Made by a program: the position numbers and the translations under genes
Part shown: positions 30,914 to 42,787 of the stretch, one piece after another
How positions within the stretch are numbered: the stretch's first letter is position 1
Layout of the letters: each line of letters starts with the position of its first letter
The notes under the pieces: generated by a model
Database searches by the model: none
Told to the model about the DNA's origin: nothing
The model's input: the letters and a program-made list of their open reading frames with translations, nothing else
Origin: Verrucomicrobiales bacterium
GTDB lineage: Bacteria > Verrucomicrobiota > Verrucomicrobiia > Verrucomicrobiales > DEV007
Length of the DNA stretch: 64,000 nucleotides
Direction of reading: 5' to 3'
NCBI GenBank assembly: GCA_048260165.1
Contig: JBLXHA010000014.1
Location: 62,882 to 126,881, forward strand

Positions 30914-30978
30914 TCCCGGGAACGTCCACGTCCCCGTCGGCATTCTAATGACTACATAAAGTGTCGGCGATTCCGCAC
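30914..30978. repeat. ~65-bp direct repeat, left copy
   Basis: tcccgggaacgtccacgtccccgtcggcattctaatgactacataaagtgtcggcgattccgcac. About 52 of 65 positions are identical to 31958-32022 by hand alignment. Confidence 0.7.
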
Positions 30979-30988
30979 TCGACCAATG

Positions 30989-31150
30989 CAGACCCCATCC
31001 GCCGGAGTCTCTGTGCGGATGGGCAGAGAAGCGTCACACGGAGTGTGACGCCTACGTATCCATCACACTCCGTGTGATGGTCAGAGCCTACCCGCCGGAG
31101 CCTCCTCTCTGTTAGGCAGAGAACACAGCTTGCAAACCTGTGCTACGACA
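30989..31150. repeat. palindrome-rich interspersed repeat, copy R1 (partial/rearranged)
   Basis: Shares with R2/R3 the blocks ccgccggag(t/c)ctc, catcacactccgtgtgatg, tcagagcc(t/c)acccgccggagcctcc, ggcagagaacaca and ttgcaaacctgtgctacg. It also has an inverted extra copy tcacacggagtgtga. Confidence 0.75.
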
Positions 31151-31213: not shown

Positions 31214-31925
31214 GCCCCCCAAAATCCAAGCACCCACTGCCGAGCTGAAGGCTCGAACGAAAACAGCACGGGGTTTCAACCCCGTGAAAACCATCATCCC
31301 ACCCCGAGCGTCCTGAAAGGCCGCCCGAAAACGTTGGTCGGCCCCAAAATTTCCCGGACCATGCGAATACCCCGGGGCCTGTCCCTCTTCCGCCCCCCCA
31401 AAATCCAAGCACCCACTGCCGAGCTGAAGGCTCGAACGAAAACAGCACGGGGTTTCAACCCCGTGAAAACCATCATCCCACCCGGAGCGTCCTGAAAGGC
31501 CGCCCGAAAACGCTGGTCGCCCCCAAAATTTCCGGGGCCATGCGAATACCCCGGGGCCTGTCCCTCTTCCGCCCCCCCAAAATCCAAGCGCCCACTACCG
31601 AGCTGAAGGCTCGAACGAAAACAGCACGGGGTATCAACCCCGTGAAAACCATCATCCCACCCCGAGCGTCCTGAAAGGCCGCCCGAAAACGCTGGTCGGC
31701 CCCAAAATTTCCGGGGCCATGCGAATACCCCGGGGCCTGTCCCTCTTCCGCCCCCCAAAATCCAAGCGCCCACTGCCGAGCTGAAGGCTCGAACGAAAAC
31801 AGCACGGGGTTTCAACCCCGTGAAAACCATCATCCCACCAGGAGCGTCCTGAAAGGCCGCCCGAAAACGTTGGGCGGCCCCAAAATTTCCGGGGCCATGC
31901 GAATACCCCGGTGCTTGTCCCTTTT
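31214..31925. repeat. tandem array, 4 units of ~179 bp
   Basis: The anchor aaaatccaag recurs at 31221, 31400, 31579 and 31757 (periods 179, 179, 178). Units are near-identical apart from a few substitutions. Each contains the hairpin cacggggtt-tc-aaccccgtg. The period is not a multiple of 3. Confidence 0.92.
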
Positions 31926-31957
31926 ACACCCTTCGGTGAATCACGTCGCTCAGTCAT

Positions 31958-32022
31958 TCCCGGGAGCGCTGACGTCCCCGTCGGCATTCTTGTGACTAGA
32001 TAAGATATCGCCGATTCTTCAC
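31958..32022. repeat. ~65-bp direct repeat, right copy
   Basis: tcccgggagcgctgacgtccccgtcggcattcttgtgactagataagatatcgccgattcttcac. It abuts and overlaps the stop codon (32019-32021) of the last island gene. Confidence 0.7.
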
Positions 32023-32570
32023 GCTTCGCGATTCTCTGGAGAACAATCTCTCGTGATTCTCTCGACCGCACCTGCTAACTGATAAAGCCGCTGGCGGGCA
32101 TCGTTAAGTTCTTCAAAAGTCATGTGCCACGTCTCAGAGTCAAAGGGCCGATCAAAATCCTTCGGTAGAGACAGGGTCATTCTTGATGCTTTCAGTCCCG
32201 TCGCCATGTCGTCATCTTGAATAATTGTCATGTGCGCATGAGCAAGATGATTCCGAATTTCCCGGAGCGGTTCGATCGCTTTAGCGAGACGGGCAAAATC
32301 ATTCTGCACCTCTTTAGAAAATCCTCCCTCTTTCACAATGGCCAAGGTTCTGCTCACCCGATCTTTAAAATGCAGGTCCCTTACCTTATCAAAATCGTCA
32401 TCCGAAAGATGCCTGCTTAAAAATGCAAGTAGGTCCAGTTCCATCGCACCGAACCCAAGGATGAAATTCCCGACGGATGAATCCCAAGTCGATTGAGCGG
32501 GAAAGATTCTAGCATCCTCGATCCGGAGGTTTGAGCCCGGTGGCTCTGAACGGTTATCGTCGGAAGGCAT
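32019..32570 (-). CDS. HEPN-like protein (Rx4H motif), cassette gene C
   Basis: 183 aa with ATG start. A single IRNHLAH motif (R106..H111, nt 32238-32255) sits in a helix-rich sequence. The family cannot be named by eye. Confidence 0.6.
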   Translation of the reverse strand: MPSDDNRSEPPGSNLRIEDARIFPAQSTWDSSVGNFILGFGAMELDLLAFLSRHLSDDDFDKVRDLHFKDRVSRTLAIVKEGGFSKEVQNDFARLAKAIEPLREIRNHLAHAHMTIIQDDDMATGLKASRMTLSLPKDFDRPFDSETWHMTFEELNDARQRLYQLAGAVERITRDCSPENREA

Positions 32571-32616
32571 CCGTTTTCGGTGAAGTTATTGGCTCGGAGG
32601 ATCGAGGGCTTTTCGT

Positions 32617-33105
32617 TTAGGCATTTGGCACAAAACCCAGCGATTGAGCGAGTTCGAATAAATGCTGCGCCTTGAGTGCATTTAGATGTTCCCAAAAATC
32701 TTGATCGCCCTCGTATGTCGAAGTCCAGAACCTTTGAAAGCGTTGCCCCTGCTCAAGATCGCTATCGAAATGATCGACCGCATGAACGGTTTCACCTTTT
32801 GTTCTACACGCACAAAAGATCAGAGCAGGAGAATATTCATCATTGATGGATCTCAGTCGCCTCTGAAGGAGTCTTCCTGGATCTCCGCAGGAGACTATGG
32901 CCACGTTTCTGCCTTCGACAGAAATTACGAAGGTAAAATCCAGGTGAGGATCTTCGGCGACTCGCTCATCCACTATTGGGCGCACGCCGGGAAACGCATT
33001 CACAAAAACGTTACTCAATGCCCGGAGCGTTTGCGTCTTTCCTGAATTCGCACGATGCCACAGAGCAATGACAGCACGGCTTGGTTGGTTTTGACTTGGT
33101 ATCAT
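32617..33105 (-). CDS. small P-loop-like protein (degenerate Walker A), cassette gene B
   Basis: 162 aa with ATG start. AVIALW-HRANSGKT-QTLRAL (nt ~33034-33057) reads as strand, P-loop, helix. The later hydrophobic strands NVAIVSCGD and PALIFCACRTKGE are possible Walker B candidates. Confidence 0.5.
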   Translation of the reverse strand: MIPSQNQPSRAVIALWHRANSGKTQTLRALSNVFVNAFPGVRPIVDERVAEDPHLDFTFVISVEGRNVAIVSCGDPGRLLQRRLRSINDEYSPALIFCACRTKGETVHAVDHFDSDLEQGQRFQRFWTSTYEGDQDFWEHLNALKAQHLFELAQSLGFVPNA

Positions 33106-33214
33106 CGGTATTTTCAGAATGGTATGGAGGGCAAAAAATCACTCGTTGGTTCAATCAGATGGCCGATCCTCACCTCAAAATTGGTCGGGGCCGGTCACTC
33201 GACGACACCATCCT

Positions 33215-33862
33215 CTATTGTTTAAAACTCTCCCAGCCGAGGGCGTCGAACACCGCTTTGAAAAAATTGGTCACGGATTCATGCAGGTAATCGCAGAGTT
33301 CTTTTGGAATGGCCAACTCTCCATCTTCGATGAGATCAAACTTTTGAAAGCTCTTGTCTAACTTAACCAGCTCCTTTATTGCATCTGCCGAGCGCTGATC
33401 CACAGCAGCGTGGACGAGGTAATTTCTGAGGCGTTGAAAAGGCCCGATTGGTGCCCAGACGCTGTGATCTCGGGGTAGAATTTTGACGTAGTCAGCTAAA
33501 AATAGTTTGGCTTTGTCGGTCAGGCTCCCGTTGAAGTCACCGAGCCGAAGGTCAAGCCCTTGCTGATTTCCAGCAGCTTTACAGACATCCTTCAGGTGGC
33601 CTTCAAAGAGGACAAACAAGCGAATGATTTCTGCGGAACGGAGAGCTCGTTGCTGCACTCGGTCCTGTTGCTCCAATCCGCTCAATGTTGATCGAAGAAG
33701 CTGGTAGTCTTCCTTGTTTTCAACCGGGGTATCTCGCTCAAACTCCTCCGAAGCCTCCTTCTGGACTCGCTTCAATTCTTCTTCAAGTTTATCAAACAGG
33801 CGACGGGTCAACGAAAGGTCGTAAACAGTATCAAAACCCCGGAAATCGATATTCAGATCCAT
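33215..33862 (-). CDS. HEPN-like protein (Rx4H motif), cassette gene A
   Basis: 215 aa with ATG start, 14 nt downstream of the Mrr-like gene stop. LRNYLVH motif (R146..H151, nt 33410-33427). Confidence 0.6.
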   Translation of the reverse strand: MDLNIDFRGFDTVYDLSLTRRLFDKLEEELKRVQKEASEEFERDTPVENKEDYQLLRSTLSGLEQQDRVQQRALRSAEIIRLFVLFEGHLKDVCKAAGNQQGLDLRLGDFNGSLTDKAKLFLADYVKILPRDHSVWAPIGPFQRLRNYLVHAAVDQRSADAIKELVKLDKSFQKFDLIEDGELAIPKELCDYLHESVTNFFKAVFDALGWESFKQ

Positions 33863-33876
33863 TGTCTCGTGAGTGA

Positions 33877-34890
33877 TTAGTCTTCCGAGTCCTCGATGGG
33901 TTCAGGGACATAGACGCGACGCAATGGGAGCACGCTCTTGTAGCGTGAATCGAAGGCTTCGTAGTTCTGAAAGATGAGGTCAACGAGTCCGTCTCCGTCG
34001 ATCAATCTCAGGTTTCCCTTTCCTTGCTCAAAGTTCCAGCAATGGGACGAAAAAGTGCCCAGGGTAATGAAAAGTCCATACTCGCCAGCCGAGAGTTTAC
34101 CAAAAAGTGCCGAGACGTCTTTGTCGGTGATGGTCCCGTCGCCACTTTTCACCTGCACTTTAATAATCGGCGGCTCGATGCCTAACTGATCCTTGTGGGC
34201 AATGACATCTACACTCGGTTCGTTGGTCCGGGCCAGTCGCGCCTGATACCCCATACACTCAAGCAAATGCCGCACGAAATCCTCAAGCGGAAGTCCCTTC
34301 AGTTCCTGGGAAAGGCGTTTGAGCACGAAGTCACGGGTGGTTTCCTCAATGTCCTCAGCGACGGCAGCGAGGGTTTCATCTTCAGAGACTGCAGGTGCCT
34401 TGATCTTGCCGTCCAGGGCAACGCGGAACTCATCGGCATAGTTCTTAATCTGGAAAAGGCTCATCGCGCTTCCACTTTCATAGAGTGCGCCTTGAGTGAA
34501 CTGTTTGCGCTCGAATTCCTTGAGCCATTCGACCTTGCGGATATTTGGATAGCTTGCGGCCAATTGCGGGGCATGCTCGTATTCCCCGGTGATCCGCCCA
34601 ATATGGATCTTACGGGTGTTCTTGTTAGGAAATACAACCAGATCGCCCACTTCTGCTTCGTGAATGAAGCGAAATAGCTGGCCCGCGTTGTTCGGAATTG
34701 CTCCGGGTTTCTTTTTCGGATAGGCCGCACTGACCGCCGCCTTGAAGGCATCCCGGTTCGGGCTCAACAACGAAAGATCGCCCATCGCTCCCCAGCCCAG
34801 ACCAATGCAGTTCTGATTCAAGAAGAGGATTGCTGCGTCGCCTGTCTTGCCGGCATGGATGCCCCAAATCGGTGTGATCGAGTTATTCAT
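33877..34890 (-). CDS. Mrr-like restriction endonuclease with an N-terminal extra domain
   Basis: The C-terminal half VDVIAHKDQLGIEPPIIKVQVKSG ... GLFITLGTFS matches the Mrr_cat D...(Q/E)xK nuclease pattern. The N-terminal ~150 aa (IWGIHAGKTGDAAILFLNQNCIGLGWGAMGDLS...) is the type of domain often fused to Mrr-family enzymes. Confidence 0.75.
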   Translation of the reverse strand: MNNSITPIWGIHAGKTGDAAILFLNQNCIGLGWGAMGDLSLLSPNRDAFKAAVSAAYPKKKPGAIPNNAGQLFRFIHEAEVGDLVVFPNKNTRKIHIGRITGEYEHAPQLAASYPNIRKVEWLKEFERKQFTQGALYESGSAMSLFQIKNYADEFRVALDGKIKAPAVSEDETLAAVAEDIEETTRDFVLKRLSQELKGLPLEDFVRHLLECMGYQARLARTNEPSVDVIAHKDQLGIEPPIIKVQVKSGDGTITDKDVSALFGKLSAGEYGLFITLGTFSSHCWNFEQGKGNLRLIDGDGLVDLIFQNYEAFDSRYKSVLPLRRVYVPEPIEDSED

Positions 34891-34902: not shown

Positions 34903-35061
34903 TCAATCAAAATCAGAGTAGTCTGAGCTGATGGTGAACTGGTAGTTCTCAGCCTGGTTATTCGTTTCAAAGACATCCCAGAGGAAGGCGACGTATTCCC
35001 CCTCCTTCGGGGTTTTGAAGGAGAGCGGGAGGTAGTTGGCGAGTTCGAGGGAATCTTCCAT
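34903..35061 (-). CDS. tiny acidic ORF (52 aa), below the ORF-track cut-off
   Basis: MEDSLELANYLPLSFKTPKEGEYVAFLWDVFETNNQAENYQFTISSDYSDFD. The ATG lies 3 nt after the hsdMS TAA and in the same frame; its stop lies 12 nt before the Mrr ATG. 11 D/E versus 2 K and no R. Confidence 0.35.
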   Translation of the reverse strand: MEDSLELANYLPLSFKTPKEGEYVAFLWDVFETNNQAENYQFTISSDYSDFD

Positions 35062-35064
35062 GGC

Positions 35065-37527
35065 TTACTCCGCTTCGATGAGTTTAGGTTCCTCTTCGCC
35101 CCAAACGCGGGCAATGGCGGCTTGGATCTTTTTCTCCATGCGGTCGACGAGTTCGTGATTGGCGGCGACTAGTGCGCATTCGGCTCGAAGATCGTTGACA
35201 ATTTCCAACTGGATCTCGATCGCGGGATTAGGCATTTGAACTTTTGACAAGATACCCTGATTGAGATTTTTCATCGTAACACCGACAGCTTGCTCTTCTA
35301 AGTAAGATTTTGTGGCAGGTGAGCTAACTTGGTAAAAAGCAAACTGGACATCATAGTTTTGTTGAAGGCGAATAACGAAGCACCCAGTGCCGCAGAGCCA
35401 CCCATTCATTTCCGCCGTGGCGACGCCGCAACGGCCCATTTCACCGCGACGCCCTATTACGATGTCGTTCTCGCGGATAGTGAATTCCTCGAGTCGGTCT
35501 CGAGTCTCAGGGGCAACCATTTTTGATCCGACCTTCTGAATTTTCCCGTCGACAATGTTCTTTGGGTTAATAACCGGAATACCTTCGTCAACATAATCAC
35601 TTTGGTGAAGTGCCGTTCCAAACGGACCAGTTAGGATTGCATCGCAAACTTGACCAAGTTCGGCAATCGGCCAGTCGGGGTGGATGGGGATGTGAGGGCG
35701 GTAGTTGTCGAGGACAGCGCGCGCACCGTCGATGACTTTCTGGTAGCCTTCGATCTCCGCCACGATCTCCTTCTGTACCTCCAGCGGAGGGAGGGGGATT
35801 TTGTGGGCGTTGTAGACGTCAGTCCTGTTTAAACCTGGAATCCCAGCACCACCCCTTAATGACGGAAGATCCAGAGCAGTCAAAATTCGATAGACGAATC
35901 TCATGTCAGTGGTCTCCGGAGCAGTGAGCTTGATGTAATAAGTGGTATCTATCGGAAAACAATTTTCCTCGATCCATGTAACTTCGCCTGCCGAACCTTT
36001 CCGCCCAACTACGATAGCGGGACCTTCAATTAGGTATTCGTCGTGGAATCCGGTAATTCCGTTAGAACCAGCCACCGGATATTTACCTTCTCTTCTTTTG
36101 GCCTTTGGTAAGCTGCCGCCGTATTCAAGGGTGCAGACGTCAGTAAAAGGAACCAGTGGGAAGGTGGAGGTTCTTGCAATCGAATCACGATAGCGCTCCC
36201 CACTTAGGTTGTATTCGCCGTTCTCGGCGATTCTCTCTTTCTCAACAATCAGGCCGAGCGTCGGCTGAAGTTCTGCGACCGATTCATTATTACGCAAAGC
36301 ATTGAGGAATTCCTCCAGTTCTGTGTGAACCTGAGGTAGATCATTCTTCTGAATTTCGCGTCGTTGCGCACCGAGCCCAAAGCCGTCGTTTTCGACTTTG
36401 AAGAAGCCGATGGTGTTACTTTGTTTGGCGAGTGATTTGTCGAAGAGAAGGATGCTTGTTTTGACGCCGGAATAAGGTTGGAAAACTCCTGCTGGCAAGG
36501 AGACGACCGCGACGAGGTATTCGTCGACAAGCATTTTTCGGAGCTGTTTGTAGGCGGTTTGAGCTTGGAAGATAATTCCCTCGGGGACGATGACGGCGGC
36601 GCGGCCATTCGGCGTGAGATGCTCCGCGATGTAGTCGACGAAGAGGACTTCACTACGCTTGGACTGCACGGAGAAGCGCTTGTGTGGCTTGATCCCGCCT
36701 TTCGGAGACATGAAGGGTGGATTGGCAAGAACGATATCGACATACTCATTCCACTTCTCGTCAGAAGTGAGGGTGTCGTATTCTTCAATATGAGGGTCTG
36801 AAAAGCCGTGAAGGTAGAGATTGACTAGCGAAAGGCGCACCATGTCGGGCGAGATATCGTAACCGTGGAAGTTATTGGCGAGTCGCCCTTTGTCATCGGG
36901 CGTGAGGGTGCTGTTACCGTTCTTGTCTTGGTTCTCTTGAGCGATGTGCTTGTATGAGGAGATAAGAAAACCAGCGGTGCCACAGGCAGGATCAAGAATC
37001 GTTTCGTCTTTCTTCGGGTCGACGATTTCAACCATGAAATCAATAATGTGTCGCGGGGTGCGAAACTGACCGGCATCGCCCTGAGATCCAAGGACAGAAA
37101 GCAGATACTCGAAGGCATCACCGAGACGCTCGGAGTGATCATATTCAAACTCATCGATGATCTTGAGGAAGCTCTTGAGCGTTTCGGGATCGCGGTAAGG
37201 GAGGTAGGCGTTTTTGAAGATGTCGCGAAAGAGCGCGGGAATACCAGCGTTCTGCGGCATCTTGGAAATGGCTTCGCCGTAGAGTGCGAGGACTTCGTGA
37301 CCGCCTAGGCCGGAGCGCATGAGCTTGGGCCAGCCGTAGCGTTCCCAGTCGCCGGAAAAGAAGGTGCGCTTGCCGCCCATCTCCTCGGACTCGGCGTCCA
37401 TGTCAGCCATGAACTTGTAGATGAGAGCGATCGTGATTTGCTCGACCTGGGATTTCGGGTCGGGAACTTTGCCGACGAGGATATCTCGGGCGGAATCGAT
37501 GCGGCGTTTGGTTTCAGTGTCGAGCAT
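35065..37527 (-). CDS. hsdM/hsdS: type I restriction-modification fused methyltransferase-specificity subunit (HsdM-HsdS)
   Basis: 820 aa. The N-terminal N6-adenine MTase has DPACGTAGFL (motif I) and VLANPPFM (motif IV). The C-terminal ~400 aa hold two target-recognition domains, each followed by a conserved helix (LPPLEVQKEIVAEIEGYQKVIDGA; NPAIEIQLEIVNDLRAECALV). Confidence 0.85.
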   Translation of the reverse strand: MLDTETKRRIDSARDILVGKVPDPKSQVEQITIALIYKFMADMDAESEEMGGKRTFFSGDWERYGWPKLMRSGLGGHEVLALYGEAISKMPQNAGIPALFRDIFKNAYLPYRDPETLKSFLKIIDEFEYDHSERLGDAFEYLLSVLGSQGDAGQFRTPRHIIDFMVEIVDPKKDETILDPACGTAGFLISSYKHIAQENQDKNGNSTLTPDDKGRLANNFHGYDISPDMVRLSLVNLYLHGFSDPHIEEYDTLTSDEKWNEYVDIVLANPPFMSPKGGIKPHKRFSVQSKRSEVLFVDYIAEHLTPNGRAAVIVPEGIIFQAQTAYKQLRKMLVDEYLVAVVSLPAGVFQPYSGVKTSILLFDKSLAKQSNTIGFFKVENDGFGLGAQRREIQKNDLPQVHTELEEFLNALRNNESVAELQPTLGLIVEKERIAENGEYNLSGERYRDSIARTSTFPLVPFTDVCTLEYGGSLPKAKRREGKYPVAGSNGITGFHDEYLIEGPAIVVGRKGSAGEVTWIEENCFPIDTTYYIKLTAPETTDMRFVYRILTALDLPSLRGGAGIPGLNRTDVYNAHKIPLPPLEVQKEIVAEIEGYQKVIDGARAVLDNYRPHIPIHPDWPIAELGQVCDAILTGPFGTALHQSDYVDEGIPVINPKNIVDGKIQKVGSKMVAPETRDRLEEFTIRENDIVIGRRGEMGRCGVATAEMNGWLCGTGCFVIRLQQNYDVQFAFYQVSSPATKSYLEEQAVGVTMKNLNQGILSKVQMPNPAIEIQLEIVNDLRAECALVAANHELVDRMEKKIQAAIARVWGEEEPKLIEAE

Positions 37528-37578
37528 GGGAAGGAGAATGTGAAAACACTATAAGTCGAAAGGAAAGATGCAGAGAGA

Positions 37579-38553
37579 CTATTGCCAGAGTGTGTGATTA
37601 CGCCAATCAGAAGGAAGCCCCATCTCTCCGAGCTGAATCTCCGGATACTCATCGAACAGGTCGAAAAGACGCTTTCTCCACTGACTCGTCGCGCTGATTT
37701 TCCCCAACCATAAGTAGGAAACTGTGAGCATGAATCCGACACGTTGATTGTCAAACTTCGGCTCAGTATGCCACTGAGGATTTTTGTTCTTCCCCGGTAT
37801 AGACGGTTTTACTCCGAACCCTCGATTCCAGATGCGTGAATGATGGGCACAGGCGTTACGGAGGGCAAAGAGGGCCTTCGTCCAGGATAGAAGCTGCTGA
37901 TCCGGAAAGCCGAAATCAGTCGCAATTTGCCGGATTACAGTCTTTTCAACGCCGTTCATCAACCGGAGCGTGGTCCCGCAGGTCATCAACTCGCACGCCA
38001 TCCAGAGAGGCAAATAGTCATGTTCATCTCCGTAAGTTTCCTGAAAATGCTTCACGAATTTATCACCCGACCTACTCTGCTCCTGTTTCAAGGAAGCGAG
38101 CCAACTTTGATGGTCTGACTGCTTGAGCCCCTTAAATTTGGCCAACGATTTGAGATCTCGTTTCAGGCGCTTCAAGAAAGGAATTTTTTTGAAGTGGGGA
38201 AGATTTTTCTCGTCGAGATGCCCGAATCCTCCATTCGTCTGGACGAAGTGATAGACGAGACGGGTTCGCACCGCCACTTCGATTCGCTCAATGGCGTCCA
38301 AAAGGAGAATACGTAGCCTGCGATCAAAATTGTAACGTCGCCAAATCACGTCAAATTTGGTGCCCGGAATGAATGTGTCGAGACGATTGCCCTGAGGATC
38401 GATTTCCCGGAAGGGATAAAGATAGCCGCTGAGACGGTAATAGTTCACCACAGTCAGTCGCTCAATGAGTTCGTCCCGGTTTGCAACCAGGCCTCGGCTG
38501 ATCAGTTGATCCGCCTGAAGGTCCACGGTAAGAGCCGGTTTGGAATAAATCAC
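37579..38553 (-). CDS. Abi_2 (AbiD/AbiF-like) abortive-infection HEPN protein embedded in the R-M operon
   Basis: FALRNACAHHSRIWN signature. The likely start is GTG 38553, preceded by AAAAGGGAGGGACTC (SD-like), giving (M)IYSKPALTVDLQADQLISRGL, typical of the family. The track ATG at 38628 has no SD. Confidence 0.8.
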   Translation of the reverse strand: MIYSKPALTVDLQADQLISRGLVANRDELIERLTVVNYYRLSGYLYPFREIDPQGNRLDTFIPGTKFDVIWRRYNFDRRLRILLLDAIERIEVAVRTRLVYHFVQTNGGFGHLDEKNLPHFKKIPFLKRLKRDLKSLAKFKGLKQSDHQSWLASLKQEQSRSGDKFVKHFQETYGDEHDYLPLWMACELMTCGTTLRLMNGVEKTVIRQIATDFGFPDQQLLSWTKALFALRNACAHHSRIWNRGFGVKPSIPGKNKNPQWHTEPKFDNQRVGFMLTVSYLWLGKISATSQWRKRLFDLFDEYPEIQLGEMGLPSDWRNHTLWQ

Positions 38554-38746
38554 GAGTCCCTCCCTTTTAGACCTTGGATTTGCCCGGAAAAGTGAAATGG
38601 GCAAAAAAATACCCGCCGAATTACGCATGCAAGCAGAGGCGCGGCAGGTTTGATGCTTCTAACAAACATCGTTAAAGCACTTCCCGCAAGTTTTTTATAG
38701 GCTGCCGTATAGGTCGCATCATAGGTGGCCCGGCGCTTAATTTCAA

Positions 38747-41287
38747 TCATGCCACAAACAGGTTCAAAGACACGTAATCCTTGATGTAATCAGGGATGAG
38801 TTGGCGATATTTCTCGGGAACTGCCTTGAGATCCCGGGTCGAGAAAACAGGATTTGTAGCCAGCTGAGTAAGCTCCCGGGTCTCGATGATATGGCGAATC
38901 TGGTCGCTGGTGACGTAAGCTTTGAAGTAATTCTTAATCGCGGGAATAGCCGCGGCTTCGTCGGGTTTGTAATCCGCGACAAACTTGGCGAACTCTTCTT
39001 CGAGCAATTCATCCTTGGATTTGAAGGCAGGGATGAGGCCGAATATTTTTTCAAGGATCTCGCGCAGGGTGAGTCGACGATCGACGGCAGCAGCCCTTCG
39101 CAGTTTATCAAGATTGTAATATTCGTCCGGTTTCTCAAAGAGCTCCTTATTGACATAGTTGATGACCTTGTCCCACTCGCCCGCCTCAACGCTCGCAGCG
39201 ATGAAGTCGTTTTCTTTGACGCTGCCCTCGAACCTATCGAAGAACATTCGGTCGATCTTCATGCCCTCAGCGCCAACCTCCGCCACTTTGAGCGAGGCGA
39301 TAATATCGGAACCGGAATTCTCGTATATCGCGCCGGTGACGGTGCCGCCACCTCCCGTGTCAGTCCCTTCGCCTGTTCCTTTCGGCTTAGGGAGTTTGAG
39401 AATTTCGTCGTAGTTGAACTCTTCCTCGAAATACTCGCAGTTCGCAAAGAAGTCGAAAAGTTTGAAGGAAGTCTTGTCCGGATTCTCAACGATTTCCTTT
39501 CTTCCTTCGTCATGGAGTTCTTCAAGGAAACGATGTTTTCGCGTTCCGCGGCCTTTGATCTGGATGAAGTCAGTCGGTGAGAAAATCGGGCGGAACATTC
39601 CCAGATTGAGAAGATCGGGACAGTCGTATCCAGTGGTCATCATACCGACGGTGACGCAGACACGGGCTTTGCTGGTCTTGTAGGTATCGATGAAATTTGC
39701 GGAGCCGAGCAGATTATTGTTCGTAAAATTGATCGTGAACTGCTGGGCATCTGAAATCTGGGAGGTCACCTGGACCGCGAAATCAGACTTATACTTCCCG
39801 GGAAACATCTTATCCGCCATGACATTGAGAATCTGGGTCAGCTTGGCGGCATGCGCCTGGCTGACGCCAAAGACGATCGACTTGCCAATCTCTCCACTGA
39901 CCGGATCGCGAAGAGCATTCTCAAGGAAGGTTTTGCAAAGAAGTTCGTTGGTGGATTCCGAGAAAAAGCGTTTCTCGAATTGGCGTTGCTTGTAGGATTC
40001 TTTCTGATCCTCGCCTTCGTCATCGGTAAATTCGACGACAAAGCCTTCTTTAGAAAGCAGCTCGGTAGTAACGTCGGAACGGGCATCGACGACCGTAGGA
40101 TTGATGAGAAACTTGTCTTTAACACCGTCCAGCAGCGAGTAGCGATAAGTAGGCTGGCTATCTTCACAACCGAAGGTTCGGTAGGTATCGAGGAGAAGTC
40201 GGCGTTCGTGCTCTCGAGGGTCCTTGGTCGTAGGCTTATCCTTGTCGAAACGTCTCAGGTAGTCGCGCGGAGTGGCAGTGAGCCCGAGCTTGGCACCAAC
40301 AAAGTATTCGAAGACTGCTCGAGCATTTCCGGAAATGGAGCGGTGAGCTTCGTCCGAGATGATGAGATCAAAGTCGGTAGGCGAGAAAAGCTGTTGGTAT
40401 TTGTTGTTGAAGAGAAGTGACTGGACAGTGGTGACGACTATCTCGGCGTGTCGCCAGTCGTCGCGATTATCCTTGTAGATCACCGTCTTGTAATCATTCG
40501 AGAGTAGAAACGCGAAGGCTTTCCAGGCTTGGACTTCGAGTTCGAGACGGTCGACAAGAAAAAGGACACGCCGAGCATTTCCGGTGCGAAGGAAGAGCTT
40601 AATAACCGCGGCAGAGGTCAGAGTCTTACCAGTGCCGGTGGCCATTTCAAAGAGAAATCGATCATTCCCCTCTTTGACGGCTGCTTGCAGTTTATGAATG
40701 GCATTTTTCTGATACTCGCGAAGAAATCGGAGTTTATTGGCATCAATATAACCAGGGCGTTCCGCTTCACTGATCCACCCCGCTTCGGAAGCGTAGGAAG
40801 GGCGCTGGGTCAGGGCGATGTAGTCGTTATCGACATTCTCTTCGACGAGGCGTTTGGTGTCCGGCCTTGTTTTGGAGTATCCAAGAACTGAGGTCGGTGT
40901 GGGGAAGCTGGTGATTAAGTAGGGATTGCCGCGTTCAAGATCCCAGAAATGGTGAAGGTTGCCGTTTGAGAGGATGACGAATCGGCAGTTCTGTGAGCGG
41001 GCATATTTTCGAGCCTGTTCTTTGCCAACAAGTGGATCTTTGTTCTCGGATTTGGCTTCGAGGACGATGAGAGGAAAGCCTTTGGAATCGAGAAGCAGGA
41101 AGTCGATGAAGCCGTTGGAGGATTTTTCGAAGTTTTCGCCGAGCTCATCGAGCGCAGCGGAGGTAACTTTGACTTTTGGCTCGAGGCAGATGTTTGCCGC
41201 TCCATTGGCGTCGTCAAAGAATCGCCAGCCCGCCCCTTCGAGGAGGTGGTTTATCTTGATGCGGGCAGTGGCCTCTTTCGCGCTCAT
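38747..41287 (-). CDS. hsdR: type I restriction enzyme R subunit (helicase-nuclease)
   Basis: N-terminal nuclease region ARIKINHLLEGAGWRF ... IDFLLLD ... LIVLEAKS. SF2 helicase motifs FEMATGTGKT, IISDEAHRS, MMTTGYDCP and QIKGRGTR. Long C-terminal helical domain. Confidence 0.9.
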   Translation of the reverse strand: MSAKEATARIKINHLLEGAGWRFFDDANGAANICLEPKVKVTSAALDELGENFEKSSNGFIDFLLLDSKGFPLIVLEAKSENKDPLVGKEQARKYARSQNCRFVILSNGNLHHFWDLERGNPYLITSFPTPTSVLGYSKTRPDTKRLVEENVDNDYIALTQRPSYASEAGWISEAERPGYIDANKLRFLREYQKNAIHKLQAAVKEGNDRFLFEMATGTGKTLTSAAVIKLFLRTGNARRVLFLVDRLELEVQAWKAFAFLLSNDYKTVIYKDNRDDWRHAEIVVTTVQSLLFNNKYQQLFSPTDFDLIISDEAHRSISGNARAVFEYFVGAKLGLTATPRDYLRRFDKDKPTTKDPREHERRLLLDTYRTFGCEDSQPTYRYSLLDGVKDKFLINPTVVDARSDVTTELLSKEGFVVEFTDDEGEDQKESYKQRQFEKRFFSESTNELLCKTFLENALRDPVSGEIGKSIVFGVSQAHAAKLTQILNVMADKMFPGKYKSDFAVQVTSQISDAQQFTINFTNNNLLGSANFIDTYKTSKARVCVTVGMMTTGYDCPDLLNLGMFRPIFSPTDFIQIKGRGTRKHRFLEELHDEGRKEIVENPDKTSFKLFDFFANCEYFEEEFNYDEILKLPKPKGTGEGTDTGGGGTVTGAIYENSGSDIIASLKVAEVGAEGMKIDRMFFDRFEGSVKENDFIAASVEAGEWDKVINYVNKELFEKPDEYYNLDKLRRAAAVDRRLTLREILEKIFGLIPAFKSKDELLEEEFAKFVADYKPDEAAAIPAIKNYFKAYVTSDQIRHIIETRELTQLATNPVFSTRDLKAVPEKYRQLIPDYIKDYVSLNLFVA

Positions 41288-41545: not shown

Positions 41546-41728
41546 AGAGACGGAATGAGTTTCATTCCGCTACGAAGCACGCGCAAAAACGTAGCACAGG
41601 TTCTCAACCTGTAAGCAGAGCCCACCCGCCGGAGCCTCTGCGCCTGCGTGCCCATCACACTCCGTGTGATGATCAGAGCCCACCCGCCGGAGCCTCCGCC
41701 CCGACAGGCAGAGAACACATGCTACGGC
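41546..41728. repeat. palindrome-rich interspersed repeat, copy R2
   Basis: gagacggaatgagtttcattccgctacg...gtagcacaggttctcaacctgt...ccgccggagcctc...catcacactccgtgtgatg...ccgccggagcctcc...ggcagagaacaca. Near-identical to R3 apart from scattered substitutions and a ~13-bp indel. Confidence 0.85.
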
Positions 41729-41833
41729 AATTGCATGGGGCTGGAGACGGAGCGGTGCCTTTATTGCGCGGGTTTGTGCTTTGTTTGGCCCCTGCGAACG
41801 CTTTAGGTTACCAGGGTTTACGTATCCCTACCC

Positions 41834-42550
41834 ATGAAAGTCATCGCCTGGAACCTCGCTCACCAAGTTAAGAAACGCCCCATTCCCGACTACATGGTCG
41901 ACGTGATCGGGGATCTCGAGGCCGACACGGTGCTCTTCAATGAGTATGTCGATCACGAGATTCGCGAACCTTTCAAAGAGGCGATGCGTGAGGCGGGGTA
42001 TCAATGGCAGGCGGTCTCCCACACTCCGGCGGTCCACAACCAGATCTTTGCGGCTTCGCGCTTTCCCTTCAAGGTGGGCGACCTCGAGCCTCCTCAGTTC
42101 GACGGCTCGGCGATCTCGAATTTTCTCCATCTCCAGTTCGATGACTTCCCCGTGGAAATGGTAGGGATCCGCGCCCCCGCTTACTCGAAAGCGGCCGACA
42201 AGCATGCCTACTGGGCCGAGCTCGCGGCGATCATGGATTCGGCGAAAGACAGGAAGATCCTTTTCGCCGGCGACGTGAATTACGATCCCTTCAAGAAAGC
42301 GAAACAACCCGAAGCGGAGACGGTTCCCTTTCATCTCTGCGATGACTATCAAATCCCCAATCCGAAGGGTGATTGGAGCTTTCTCGCCTACAGCGGAAAT
42401 GGCTTCAAGATCGATCACGTGATGCACACTCCCAACATCGAGGTCACTCAAGTCGAATACCTCAATTGGATCCGCGGACGCTATCTCGCCGGAGAGAAAA
42501 TCAAGAAGCCCATCTCGGATCACGCGGTGCTGCGGTTTGAGGTCGAGTAG
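41834..42550 (+). CDS. endonuclease/exonuclease/phosphatase (EEP) family protein
   Basis: MKVIAWNLAH, VLFNEY, FAGDVNYDP, IDHVM and ISDHAVLRFEV follow the order of EEP catalytic motifs. Confidence 0.8.
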   Translation: MKVIAWNLAHQVKKRPIPDYMVDVIGDLEADTVLFNEYVDHEIREPFKEAMREAGYQWQAVSHTPAVHNQIFAASRFPFKVGDLEPPQFDGSAISNFLHLQFDDFPVEMVGIRAPAYSKAADKHAYWAELAAIMDSAKDRKILFAGDVNYDPFKKAKQPEAETVPFHLCDDYQIPNPKGDWSFLAYSGNGFKIDHVMHTPNIEVTQVEYLNWIRGRYLAGEKIKKPISDHAVLRFEVE

Positions 42551-42575
42551 GGTTCAGCGCGAGCCGGGAATCACA

Positions 42576-42770
42576 GAGACGGAATGAGTTTCATTCCGCT
42601 ACGAGGCACACGCAAAAACGTAGCACAGGTTTTCAACCTGTAAGCAGAGCCGATCCGCCGGAGCCTCTGCGCCTGCGTGCCCATCACACTCCGTGTGATG
42701 ATCAGAGCCTACCCGCCGAAGCCTCCGCCCCGAGAGGCAGAGAACACAGGTTGCAAACCTGTGCTACGGC
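42576..42770. repeat. palindrome-rich interspersed repeat, copy R3
   Basis: Direct-orientation copy of R2. It ends with the perfect hairpin cacaggtt-gca-aacctgtg inside gaacacaggttgcaaacctgtgctacggc. Confidence 0.85.
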
Positions 42771-42787
42771 AGATTCTGACGCTTCCT

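Follow-up and report, generated by a model that had tools for sequence, protein, structure and literature searches.

Three neighbouring genes in the variable tail of a verrucomicrobial restriction–modification island, two HEPN-like and one P-loop-like, are probably independent passengers

The window analysed here is a 64,000-nt stretch of contig JBLXHA010000014.1 from a Verrucomicrobiales bacterium, and our subject is three open reading frames (ORFs) within it, genes A, B and C, that follow an Mrr-like nuclease gene at the distal end of a type I restriction–modification (R-M) island. We read the 1.8-kb stretch that they occupy as the 3′ end of a type I R-M/AbiD/Mrr island, a variable tail reshuffled by horizontal transfer and holding three independently mobile single genes and not one system, a reading that we consider probable though well short of certain. 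The genes are taken to be separate passengers because their families do not co-occur elsewhere and because homology to related islands breaks at gene boundaries. The original prediction, made from the sequence of this locus, had instead proposed a cassette in which an NTPase gates two HEPN effectors, and had named a lack of synteny among the homologues as one of the results that would refute it; no pair of the three families co-occurs in the ~60 loci checked, and the homologues are not syntenic elsewhere.

Sequence searches resolved the trio into three unrelated sets of relatives. A word-indexed search of 5.8 billion proteins returned seven relatives for A and a single one each for B and C, and a HMMER scan in which the concatenated A, B and C were run against 1.84 billion cluster representatives returned 458 matches at E ≤ 1e-3 that form three separate families; among the 150 of these matches listed, each aligns to one stretch inside one gene segment and none spans two. 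Local phmmer sorting of the retrieved proteins gave 27 A-, 78 B- and 52 C-family sequences, and the family alignments hold 21 (A), 69 (B) and 38 (C) sequences. Since hardly any columns of each family are invariant and the motif residues are among them, the three ORFs are, judged from their relatives, real genes under selection, with motifs that characterise the families and did not arise by chance. Pfam, PADLOC, NCBIfam and PHROGs gave nothing above threshold for any of the three, no PDB entry was matched significantly by sequence or by profile, and tblastn against PLSDB plasmids and INPHARED phages gave no matches. Among the named defence systems in PADLOC-DB v2, no component model matched A or B, and C gave only sub-threshold matches to CARF_HEPN and PD-T4-2_B, at E ~0.04. 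The earlier statement that none of the three belongs to a named family or system is thus upheld by Pfam, PADLOC and NCBIfam alike.

Co-occurrence was assessed in 15 B loci from GTDB genomes (contigs scanned with a 10-sequence B alignment), 35 metagenomic C loci and ~8 A contexts. In the 15 B loci, which are mostly from Bacteroidota, the sequence within 6 kb of B is free of A- and C-family genes; no A- or B-family gene was present in the 35 C loci, and no second member of the trio was present among the ~8 A contexts.

Comparison with related islands locates the breaks. Sister islands from metagenomes (L001–L006) carry HsdR, Abi_2, HsdMS and A at 93%, 84%, 64% and 83% amino-acid identity to the window, respectively, and share with it a downstream glutathione peroxidase gene; B and C were not found in these islands, where the interval between A and the peroxidase gene is occupied by a truncated hsdR C-terminal fragment, HNH_2 and DUF2726. 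At the nucleotide level, blastn homology between the window and L001 is limited to the R-M core (85% identity across 41290-36188), gene A (33865-33210) and the peroxidase gene, and that between the window and L008, an island of Verrucomicrobiales bacterium BCK34, covers the gene C segment (32610-31929). The spacer between B and C aligns to L008 9740-9775, that is, to the last ~30 nt and stop codon of a DUF4357 gene preceding the C homologue there. By this alignment the spacer is a recombination scar; because of it, C appears to have come with, or once to have had, a DUF4357 gene upstream, and B to have joined through a rearrangement ending at the B stop codon.

A similar exchange is evident on the other side of gene A. 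The Mrr-like gene has no tblastn match in L001–L011, and its position in the sister islands is taken by a 247-aa gene (weak RiboL-PSP-HEPN match, E 0.025) and an unrelated 337-aa gene. Because the window keeps a 52-aa stump of the 247-aa gene (intact at L001 8164-8907; blastn, window 35172-34933 = L001 8053-8292), the Mrr-like gene has, on this alignment, taken the place of the HEPN-like gene and the 337-aa gene together. The sister islands carry, behind A, a 312-aa piece of a second HsdR (helicase motifs V-VI and T1RH-like_C; L001 10649-11587), of which a 57-aa remnant persists at L007 10627-10800; as both directly follow A, their position suggests that A once lay upstream of an hsdR gene within a type I locus.

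Several features of the locus weigh against the view that the three genes are separate. They lie on one strand behind the Mrr-like gene, with gaps of 14 nt (Mrr–A), 109 nt (A–B) and 46 nt (B–C), and a terminator scan found no terminator-like site in the gaps between A, B and C, the terminator-like matches inside the stretch lying only within coding sequence (one in C and one in Mrr). Being co-directional, closely spaced and uninterrupted by such sites, the three genes probably share a transcript in this genome, and their products could interact here. Among close homologues, moreover, the contexts are few: beyond the window, B (at 53%) and C (at 86%) are each represented by a single one. HEPN domains are commonly dimeric, HEPN-type motifs are present in both A and C, and the three genes share a low GC content, so that a single abortive-infection system, in which two HEPN RNases or a heterodimer of them are gated by NTPase B, can be argued from the layout. 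We nonetheless regard such a system as very improbable because no two of the families were together in any locus checked, the sister islands keep A and lack B and C, the A and C families are barely related, and the breakpoints fall at gene boundaries. Three independent genes thus remain our preferred reading, and each is considered on its own below.

The HEPN domain is described as an up-down bundle of four helices, the second and third separated by an insert, with an Rx4-6H motif at the end of helix 3 in which a polar residue (N, D or H) follows the arginine and, often, an acidic Ex3[KR] motif in helix 2 (PMC3710099). The gene A family, whose homologues are 56-83% identical, has four invariant residues in the 21 aligned sequences (E87, W136, R146 and H151). 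The residue after R146 is N or D across the family, in keeping with the Rx4-6H motif and its polar residue, and E87-G-H-L-K91 conforms to Ex3[KR], with K or R at the +4 position in most members. A first AlphaFold model built with seven close homologues was discarded (predicted local distance difference test (pLDDT) 47); a model from 21 diverse sequences reached pLDDT 90.3 and a predicted template-modelling score (pTM) of 0.86. This model is all-alpha: residues 1-100 form a long helical hairpin, E87 is placed in the long second helix (50-100), a short helical insert follows, and the Rx4H motif falls in the C-terminal half of helix 139-154. The predicted order of elements fits the published HEPN description (PMC3710099).

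Set against a HEPN assignment for gene A are its database comparisons. Pfam, PADLOC and NCBIfam gave nothing for it, so that no described HEPN profile is matched, and the family profile gave nothing against PDB sequences; a lone weak match to HEPN_Cthe2314 was returned by 1 of 21 family members (E 1.6e-3). Foldseek of the model against the PDB found nothing significant (best E 0.7), the HEPN entries among the non-significant matches being 2hsb (E 2.2, TMt 0.52) and HepS 9oij (E 3.7). The A- and C-family profiles match each other only weakly (probability 21%), which also does not help a common HEPN identity, and the idea that A and C are paralogues was dropped on that value. Of the earlier suggestion that A is a HEPN-like protein, the conserved motifs and an all-alpha model with fitting motif placement stand, but no significant profile or fold match accompanies them; by motif and predicted topology gene A may be HEPN-like, and no described clade fits it. 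A Foldseek search of BFVD with the same model returned a sole neighbour, the uncharacterised A0A8S5LJP3 of Myoviridae sp. ct6F13, which at 215 aa has the same length as A (template-modelling score 0.66, 11% identity, E 7e-3).

The surroundings of gene A vary with the locus. The order is Mrr-A in the window, HsdR-Abi2-HsdMS-247aa-337aa-A-hsdR′-HNH_2-DUF2726 in L001, HsdM-HsdS-500aa-A in L010, HSDR_N_2-314aa-A followed by the 57-aa hsdR remnant in L007, HsdM-HsdS-AAA_15-HNH-PDDEXK_4-A-McrB in L062 and GAPS4a-GAPS4b-A in L068, and distant family members sit in unrelated settings. A specific tie between A and the Mrr-like gene was rejected, as none of the other A loci has a homologue of the latter. 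Upstream of A there is a nuclease-type or unknown defence gene, 12-63 nt away and on the same strand. This constant placement, the long N-terminal hairpin of the model and the want of a significant HEPN fold match would all suit an alternative interpretation in which A is not an RNase but an accessory or regulatory subunit of the upstream nuclease (a coiled-coil adaptor, or an immunity or antitoxin partner). We consider this unlikely: the upstream partners are mutually unrelated, which speaks against a specific protein–protein partnership, and the sole invariant residues, E87, W136, R146 and H151, look catalytic and not interface-like.

Gene C is the second HEPN-like candidate. R103, R106, N107 and A110 are invariant in its 38-sequence alignment and H111 is at least 90% conserved, again giving the Rx4-6H motif with a polar residue after the arginine. 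Its sub-threshold matches to HEPN_Swt1 (0.036), HEPN_LA2681 (0.095) and CARF_HEPN (~0.04) are all centred on RNHLAH, 3 of 38 family members match HEPN_RiboL-PSP (best 7.6e-5), and in comparisons with PDB sequences the family profile aligns its motif onto the Csm6 HEPN motif at non-significant values (E 0.22 and 0.39). The suggestion that C is a HEPN-like protein therefore keeps its conserved motif and a set of HEPN matches consistently aligned on it, but all of these are sub-threshold for the window protein; we regard C as possibly HEPN-like by motif, predicted to adopt the HEPN fold and probably near the RiboL-PSP group.

The 86% homologue of C is full-length and lies in a different defence island (L008), 16 nt past the DUF4357/PDC-S14 gene, with NERD and PIN7 genes next. 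Other family members neighbour JetD_C (upstream), DUF1684, Fic and NERD genes, and fusions to DUF429 and to an S-adenosylmethionine methyltransferase occur. A 144-aa gene before a 55% homologue of C was considered as a relative of B and rejected: it is a truncated Fic N-terminus with no B-family match. DUF4357/PDC-S14 was likewise rejected as the true partner of B and C, since it is found only in L008, L009 and L012, besides the relic in the window; no DUF4357 gene was found in the 35 metagenomic C loci.

Gene B belongs to a family of hundreds of members, mostly from Bacteroidota. In the 69 aligned sequences K23, Y131 and N142 are invariant, and G22, D56, G74-D75-P76, C98, R101, G104, T106, S129, K145 and H148 are at least 90% conserved; position 24 is T or S, and the residue that would be the first glycine of Walker A varies (H17 in the window). 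Walker B candidates are D56 (at least 90% conserved) and (E)SxG74-D75-P76, a placement that is a guess, and the E of this ‘ESxGDP’ segment is a valine in the window copy. Matches to nSTAND_NTPase5 were obtained for 3 of 69 members (1e-6), single weak matches to CLP1_P, AAA_25, ATPase_2 and AAA_22 were scattered through the family, and the top matches of the family profile to the PDB (UreG, Midasin, RFC and FtsY; E 0.14-1.8) are non-significant. What survives of the suggestion that B is an NTPase is thus the conserved GK[ST] and scattered weak P-loop matches, those to the PDB not significant, with the first glycine variable. B may be called P-loop-like, and an NTPase fold is a prediction from its sequence.

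Genes preceding B in other loci include Gabija GajA/GajB, DUF2326 and DUF4357/PDC-S14, and the 53% homologue (L009) lies 5 nt past another DUF4357/PDC-S14 gene. Several B genes in Bacteroidota are followed on their own strand, at ~90 nt or less, by the gene of an enzyme that might serve as effector: a GIY-YIG gene that overlaps B by 4 nt (L013 6441-6896), RtcB (L021 6479-7858 and L025 4721-6097) and a cytidine deaminase with HATPase_c_4 (L022 552-2015). B and the enzyme downstream may represent a pattern of a small NTPase plus a variable enzyme, and if B were the constant part of such a modular pair, B-C in the window, where C follows B at close range across a spacer free of terminator-like sites, would be one newly recombined unit with A separate. 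This we find rather improbable because B is last in its operon, with a convergent gene next, in at least five B loci (L014, L016, L019, L020 and L023), a B-family gene precedes C in 0 of 35 C loci, and B was not seen fused to any effector domain, Pfam finding no domain in the two long proteins that contain it. The B-C junction is moreover a scar left by a deleted DUF4357 gene, so that the juxtaposition is recent and possibly accidental.

If the three genes are independent, as we prefer to read them, the following picture can be sketched. A and C would be two different unnamed HEPN-like families, each most likely acting alone as a metal-independent RNase through its Rx4H site. They would be silent in normal growth and released on phage infection or on failure of the neighbouring DNA-targeting nucleases, leading to abortive infection or growth arrest, a ‘second line’ logic proposed by analogy with PrrC. 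Gene B would be a ~150-aa P-loop-like family placed at or near the 3′ end of varied defence operons with no fixed partner, and its putative role is probably nucleotide-dependent regulation or sensing. A defence role and this mode of activation are predictions for all members of the trio. More specifically, and only tentatively, A may be an undescribed HEPN-like clade serving as a portable back-up RNase behind unrelated PD-(D/E)xK-type nucleases (Mrr, PDDEXK_4, GAPS4 and type I R-M), with B a new small NTPase shared as an accessory by many defence operons; each would then be a new defence-island family in its own right, outside any three-gene system.

The layout of the locus agrees with its original description (Table 1). 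A six-frame ORF list returned the three minus-strand ORFs at exactly the coordinates first given and the start of A 14 nt past the stop of the Mrr-like ORF. Both R-N-x-x-x-H motifs were found as quoted, at nt 33427-33410 in gene A (R146-N-Y-L-V-H151) and nt 32255-32238 in gene C (R106-N-H-L-A-H111), as was AVIALW-HRANSGKT-QTLRAL at residues 11-30 of gene B. The setting among type I R-M, Abi_2 and Mrr genes was borne out by the ORF list and by Pfam and PADLOC matches, and its low GC by a GC profile in which the ~32-42 kb block has 0.49-0.52 vs 0.55-0.62 on either side.

Table 1. Coordinates of genes A, B and C and of the features around them in the window.
Feature	Coordinates (nt)	Strand	Description or evidence
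Type I R-M core of the island	35065-41287	-	HsdR, Abi_2/AbiD, HsdM-HsdS
HsdR	38747-41287	-	ORF list and profile matches
Abi_2/AbiD	37579-38628	-	ORF list and profile matches
HsdM-HsdS fusion	35065-37527	-	ORF list and profile matches
ORF between HsdMS and Mrr	34903-35061	-	52 aa; N-terminal stump of the 247-aa sister-island gene
Mrr-like type IV restriction nuclease	33877-34890	-	337 aa; Pfam Mrr_cat 1.1e-18; PADLOC candidate PDC-S02 2.8e-130
Gene A	33215-33862	-	215 aa; possibly HEPN-like, all-alpha in the model; E87x3K91 and R146-N-x3-H151
Gene B	32617-33105	-	162 aa; small, possibly P-loop-like
B-C spacer	32586-32616	-	3′ relic of a DUF4357/PDC-S14 gene, from the L008 alignment
Gene C	32019-32570	-	183 aa; possibly HEPN-like; R103 and R106-N-H-L-A-H111
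Four tandem repeats just past C	31215-31938	-	Acido-Lenti-1 RNA matches and terminator-like hairpins

Directly past C lie tandem repeats of ~179 nt each that are 91-97% identical. Every one of the four repeats has an Rfam Acido-Lenti-1 match; three of the matches score 40.6 bits against a gathering score of 37 and the other 34.5 bits, and each coincides with a terminator-like hairpin, CACGGGGTTGAAACCCCGTG, and a U-rich tail; these are the four strongest hairpins with U tails in the terminator scan, and the repeats are the likely transcription end of the operon. The Acido-Lenti-1 motif has been described only from Acidobacteria and Lentisphaerae (PMC2864571), and here it stands in a tandem array in an apparently verrucomicrobial genome. 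A 65-nt direct repeat (80% identity; 30914-30978 and 31958-32022) flanks the array together with a flank element, one copy overlapping the C stop codon and the other lying upstream of the glutathione peroxidase gene. An element of ~100-175 nt with 23-nt inverted arms (CGTAGCACAGGTT..AACCTGT) is present at 31049-31150, 41546-41742 and 42575-42771, its copies flanking the low-GC R-M island and a 238-aa gene (41834-42550), and related copies adjoin the islands in L001 and L008; it may be a marker of an integration hotspot resembling a miniature inverted-repeat transposable element or a repetitive extragenic palindromic element. At the 5′ end of the Abi_2/AbiD gene, the normal position of the motif, there is a weak match to the abiF RNA motif (RF03085; 38611-38648, minus strand; 28.2 bits vs a gathering score of 37, E 0.16).

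The practical value of these results is that the trio should not be handled as a new system and that experiments should be directed to single genes. Should A and C prove to be active RNases, the HEPN genes that accompany restriction systems would gain two unnamed clades, and the remaining interest lies in the confident, novel-looking helical architecture modelled for family A and in its recurrent place behind unrelated PD-(D/E)xK nucleases. Family B, whose neighbours include Gabija, PDC-S14, RtcB, deaminase and GIY-YIG genes, would be worth screening as a defence accessory, and the island itself is a clean natural illustration of how the tail of an R-M operon exchanges cassettes gene by gene, leaving breakpoints at gene boundaries and a 30-nt scar. 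The families are unnamed and uncharacterised, but their kind is known, namely HEPN-type and small accessory genes in R-M-centred islands, and current views stand.

The PADLOC candidates PDC-S02 and PDC-S14 are among the known systems closest to the locus: PDC-S02 is strongly matched by the gene before A, and a PDC-S14 gene immediately precedes the nearest homologue of B and likewise that of C, a 3′ relic of such a gene separating B and C in the window. Both are catalogued as single genes, however, with A, B and C outside those models, and the association with B or C amounts to two or three loci. Gene B shares an N-terminal strand, GK[ST] and a helix with the SIMIBI/G3E P-loop NTPases (UreG and HypB) and with the nSTAND5 module, and the family ‘ESxGDP’ segment aligns with ‘ETGGCPH’ of UreG, all PDB matches being below significance; unlike nSTAND5 proteins, B is ~150 aa long with no further domains and without the STAND architecture. 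B-C resembles HEPN-MNT type II/VII toxin–antitoxin pairs in having a small gene directly upstream of a HEPN-like gene, and many C-family genes are tightly coupled to the gene upstream, but B has no nucleotidyltransferase signature, its conserved motif is P-loop-like, and the upstream partners of C-family genes are heterogeneous. The anticodon nucleases PrrC and RloC are likewise embedded in type I R-M loci, as A and C are, but carry an N-terminal ABC ATPase fused to a C-terminal HEPN-like nuclease, whereas A and C are single-domain proteins and B is a separate, small, non-ABC protein.

A close likeness is also seen to R-M-associated HEPN proteins such as Abi2/AbiD and RiboL-PSP-HEPN and, in function, to PrrC/RloC. 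At least 16 HEPN clades have been linked to R-M systems, for which an analogy with PrrC and the logic of a latent RNase that fires when DNA-level defence is bypassed have been proposed (PMC3710099). A and C differ from these proteins in falling below every Pfam HEPN threshold, and A in its ~100-residue N-terminal hairpin and want of a significant PDB neighbour. They agree with them in being small and, by prediction, alpha-helical, with Rx4-6H, a polar residue after R and an upstream conserved acidic residue, and their genes likewise occupy internal or terminal positions in operons for type I R-M or restriction nucleases, where such proteins are proposed to be back-up suicidal RNases (PMC3710099). 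The window operon itself holds an Abi_2 gene, and the sister islands hold a weakly RiboL-PSP-like gene at the Mrr site. By this analogy, A and C probably belong with the HEPN proteins already catalogued, as RNases linked to R-M and acting in abortive infection.

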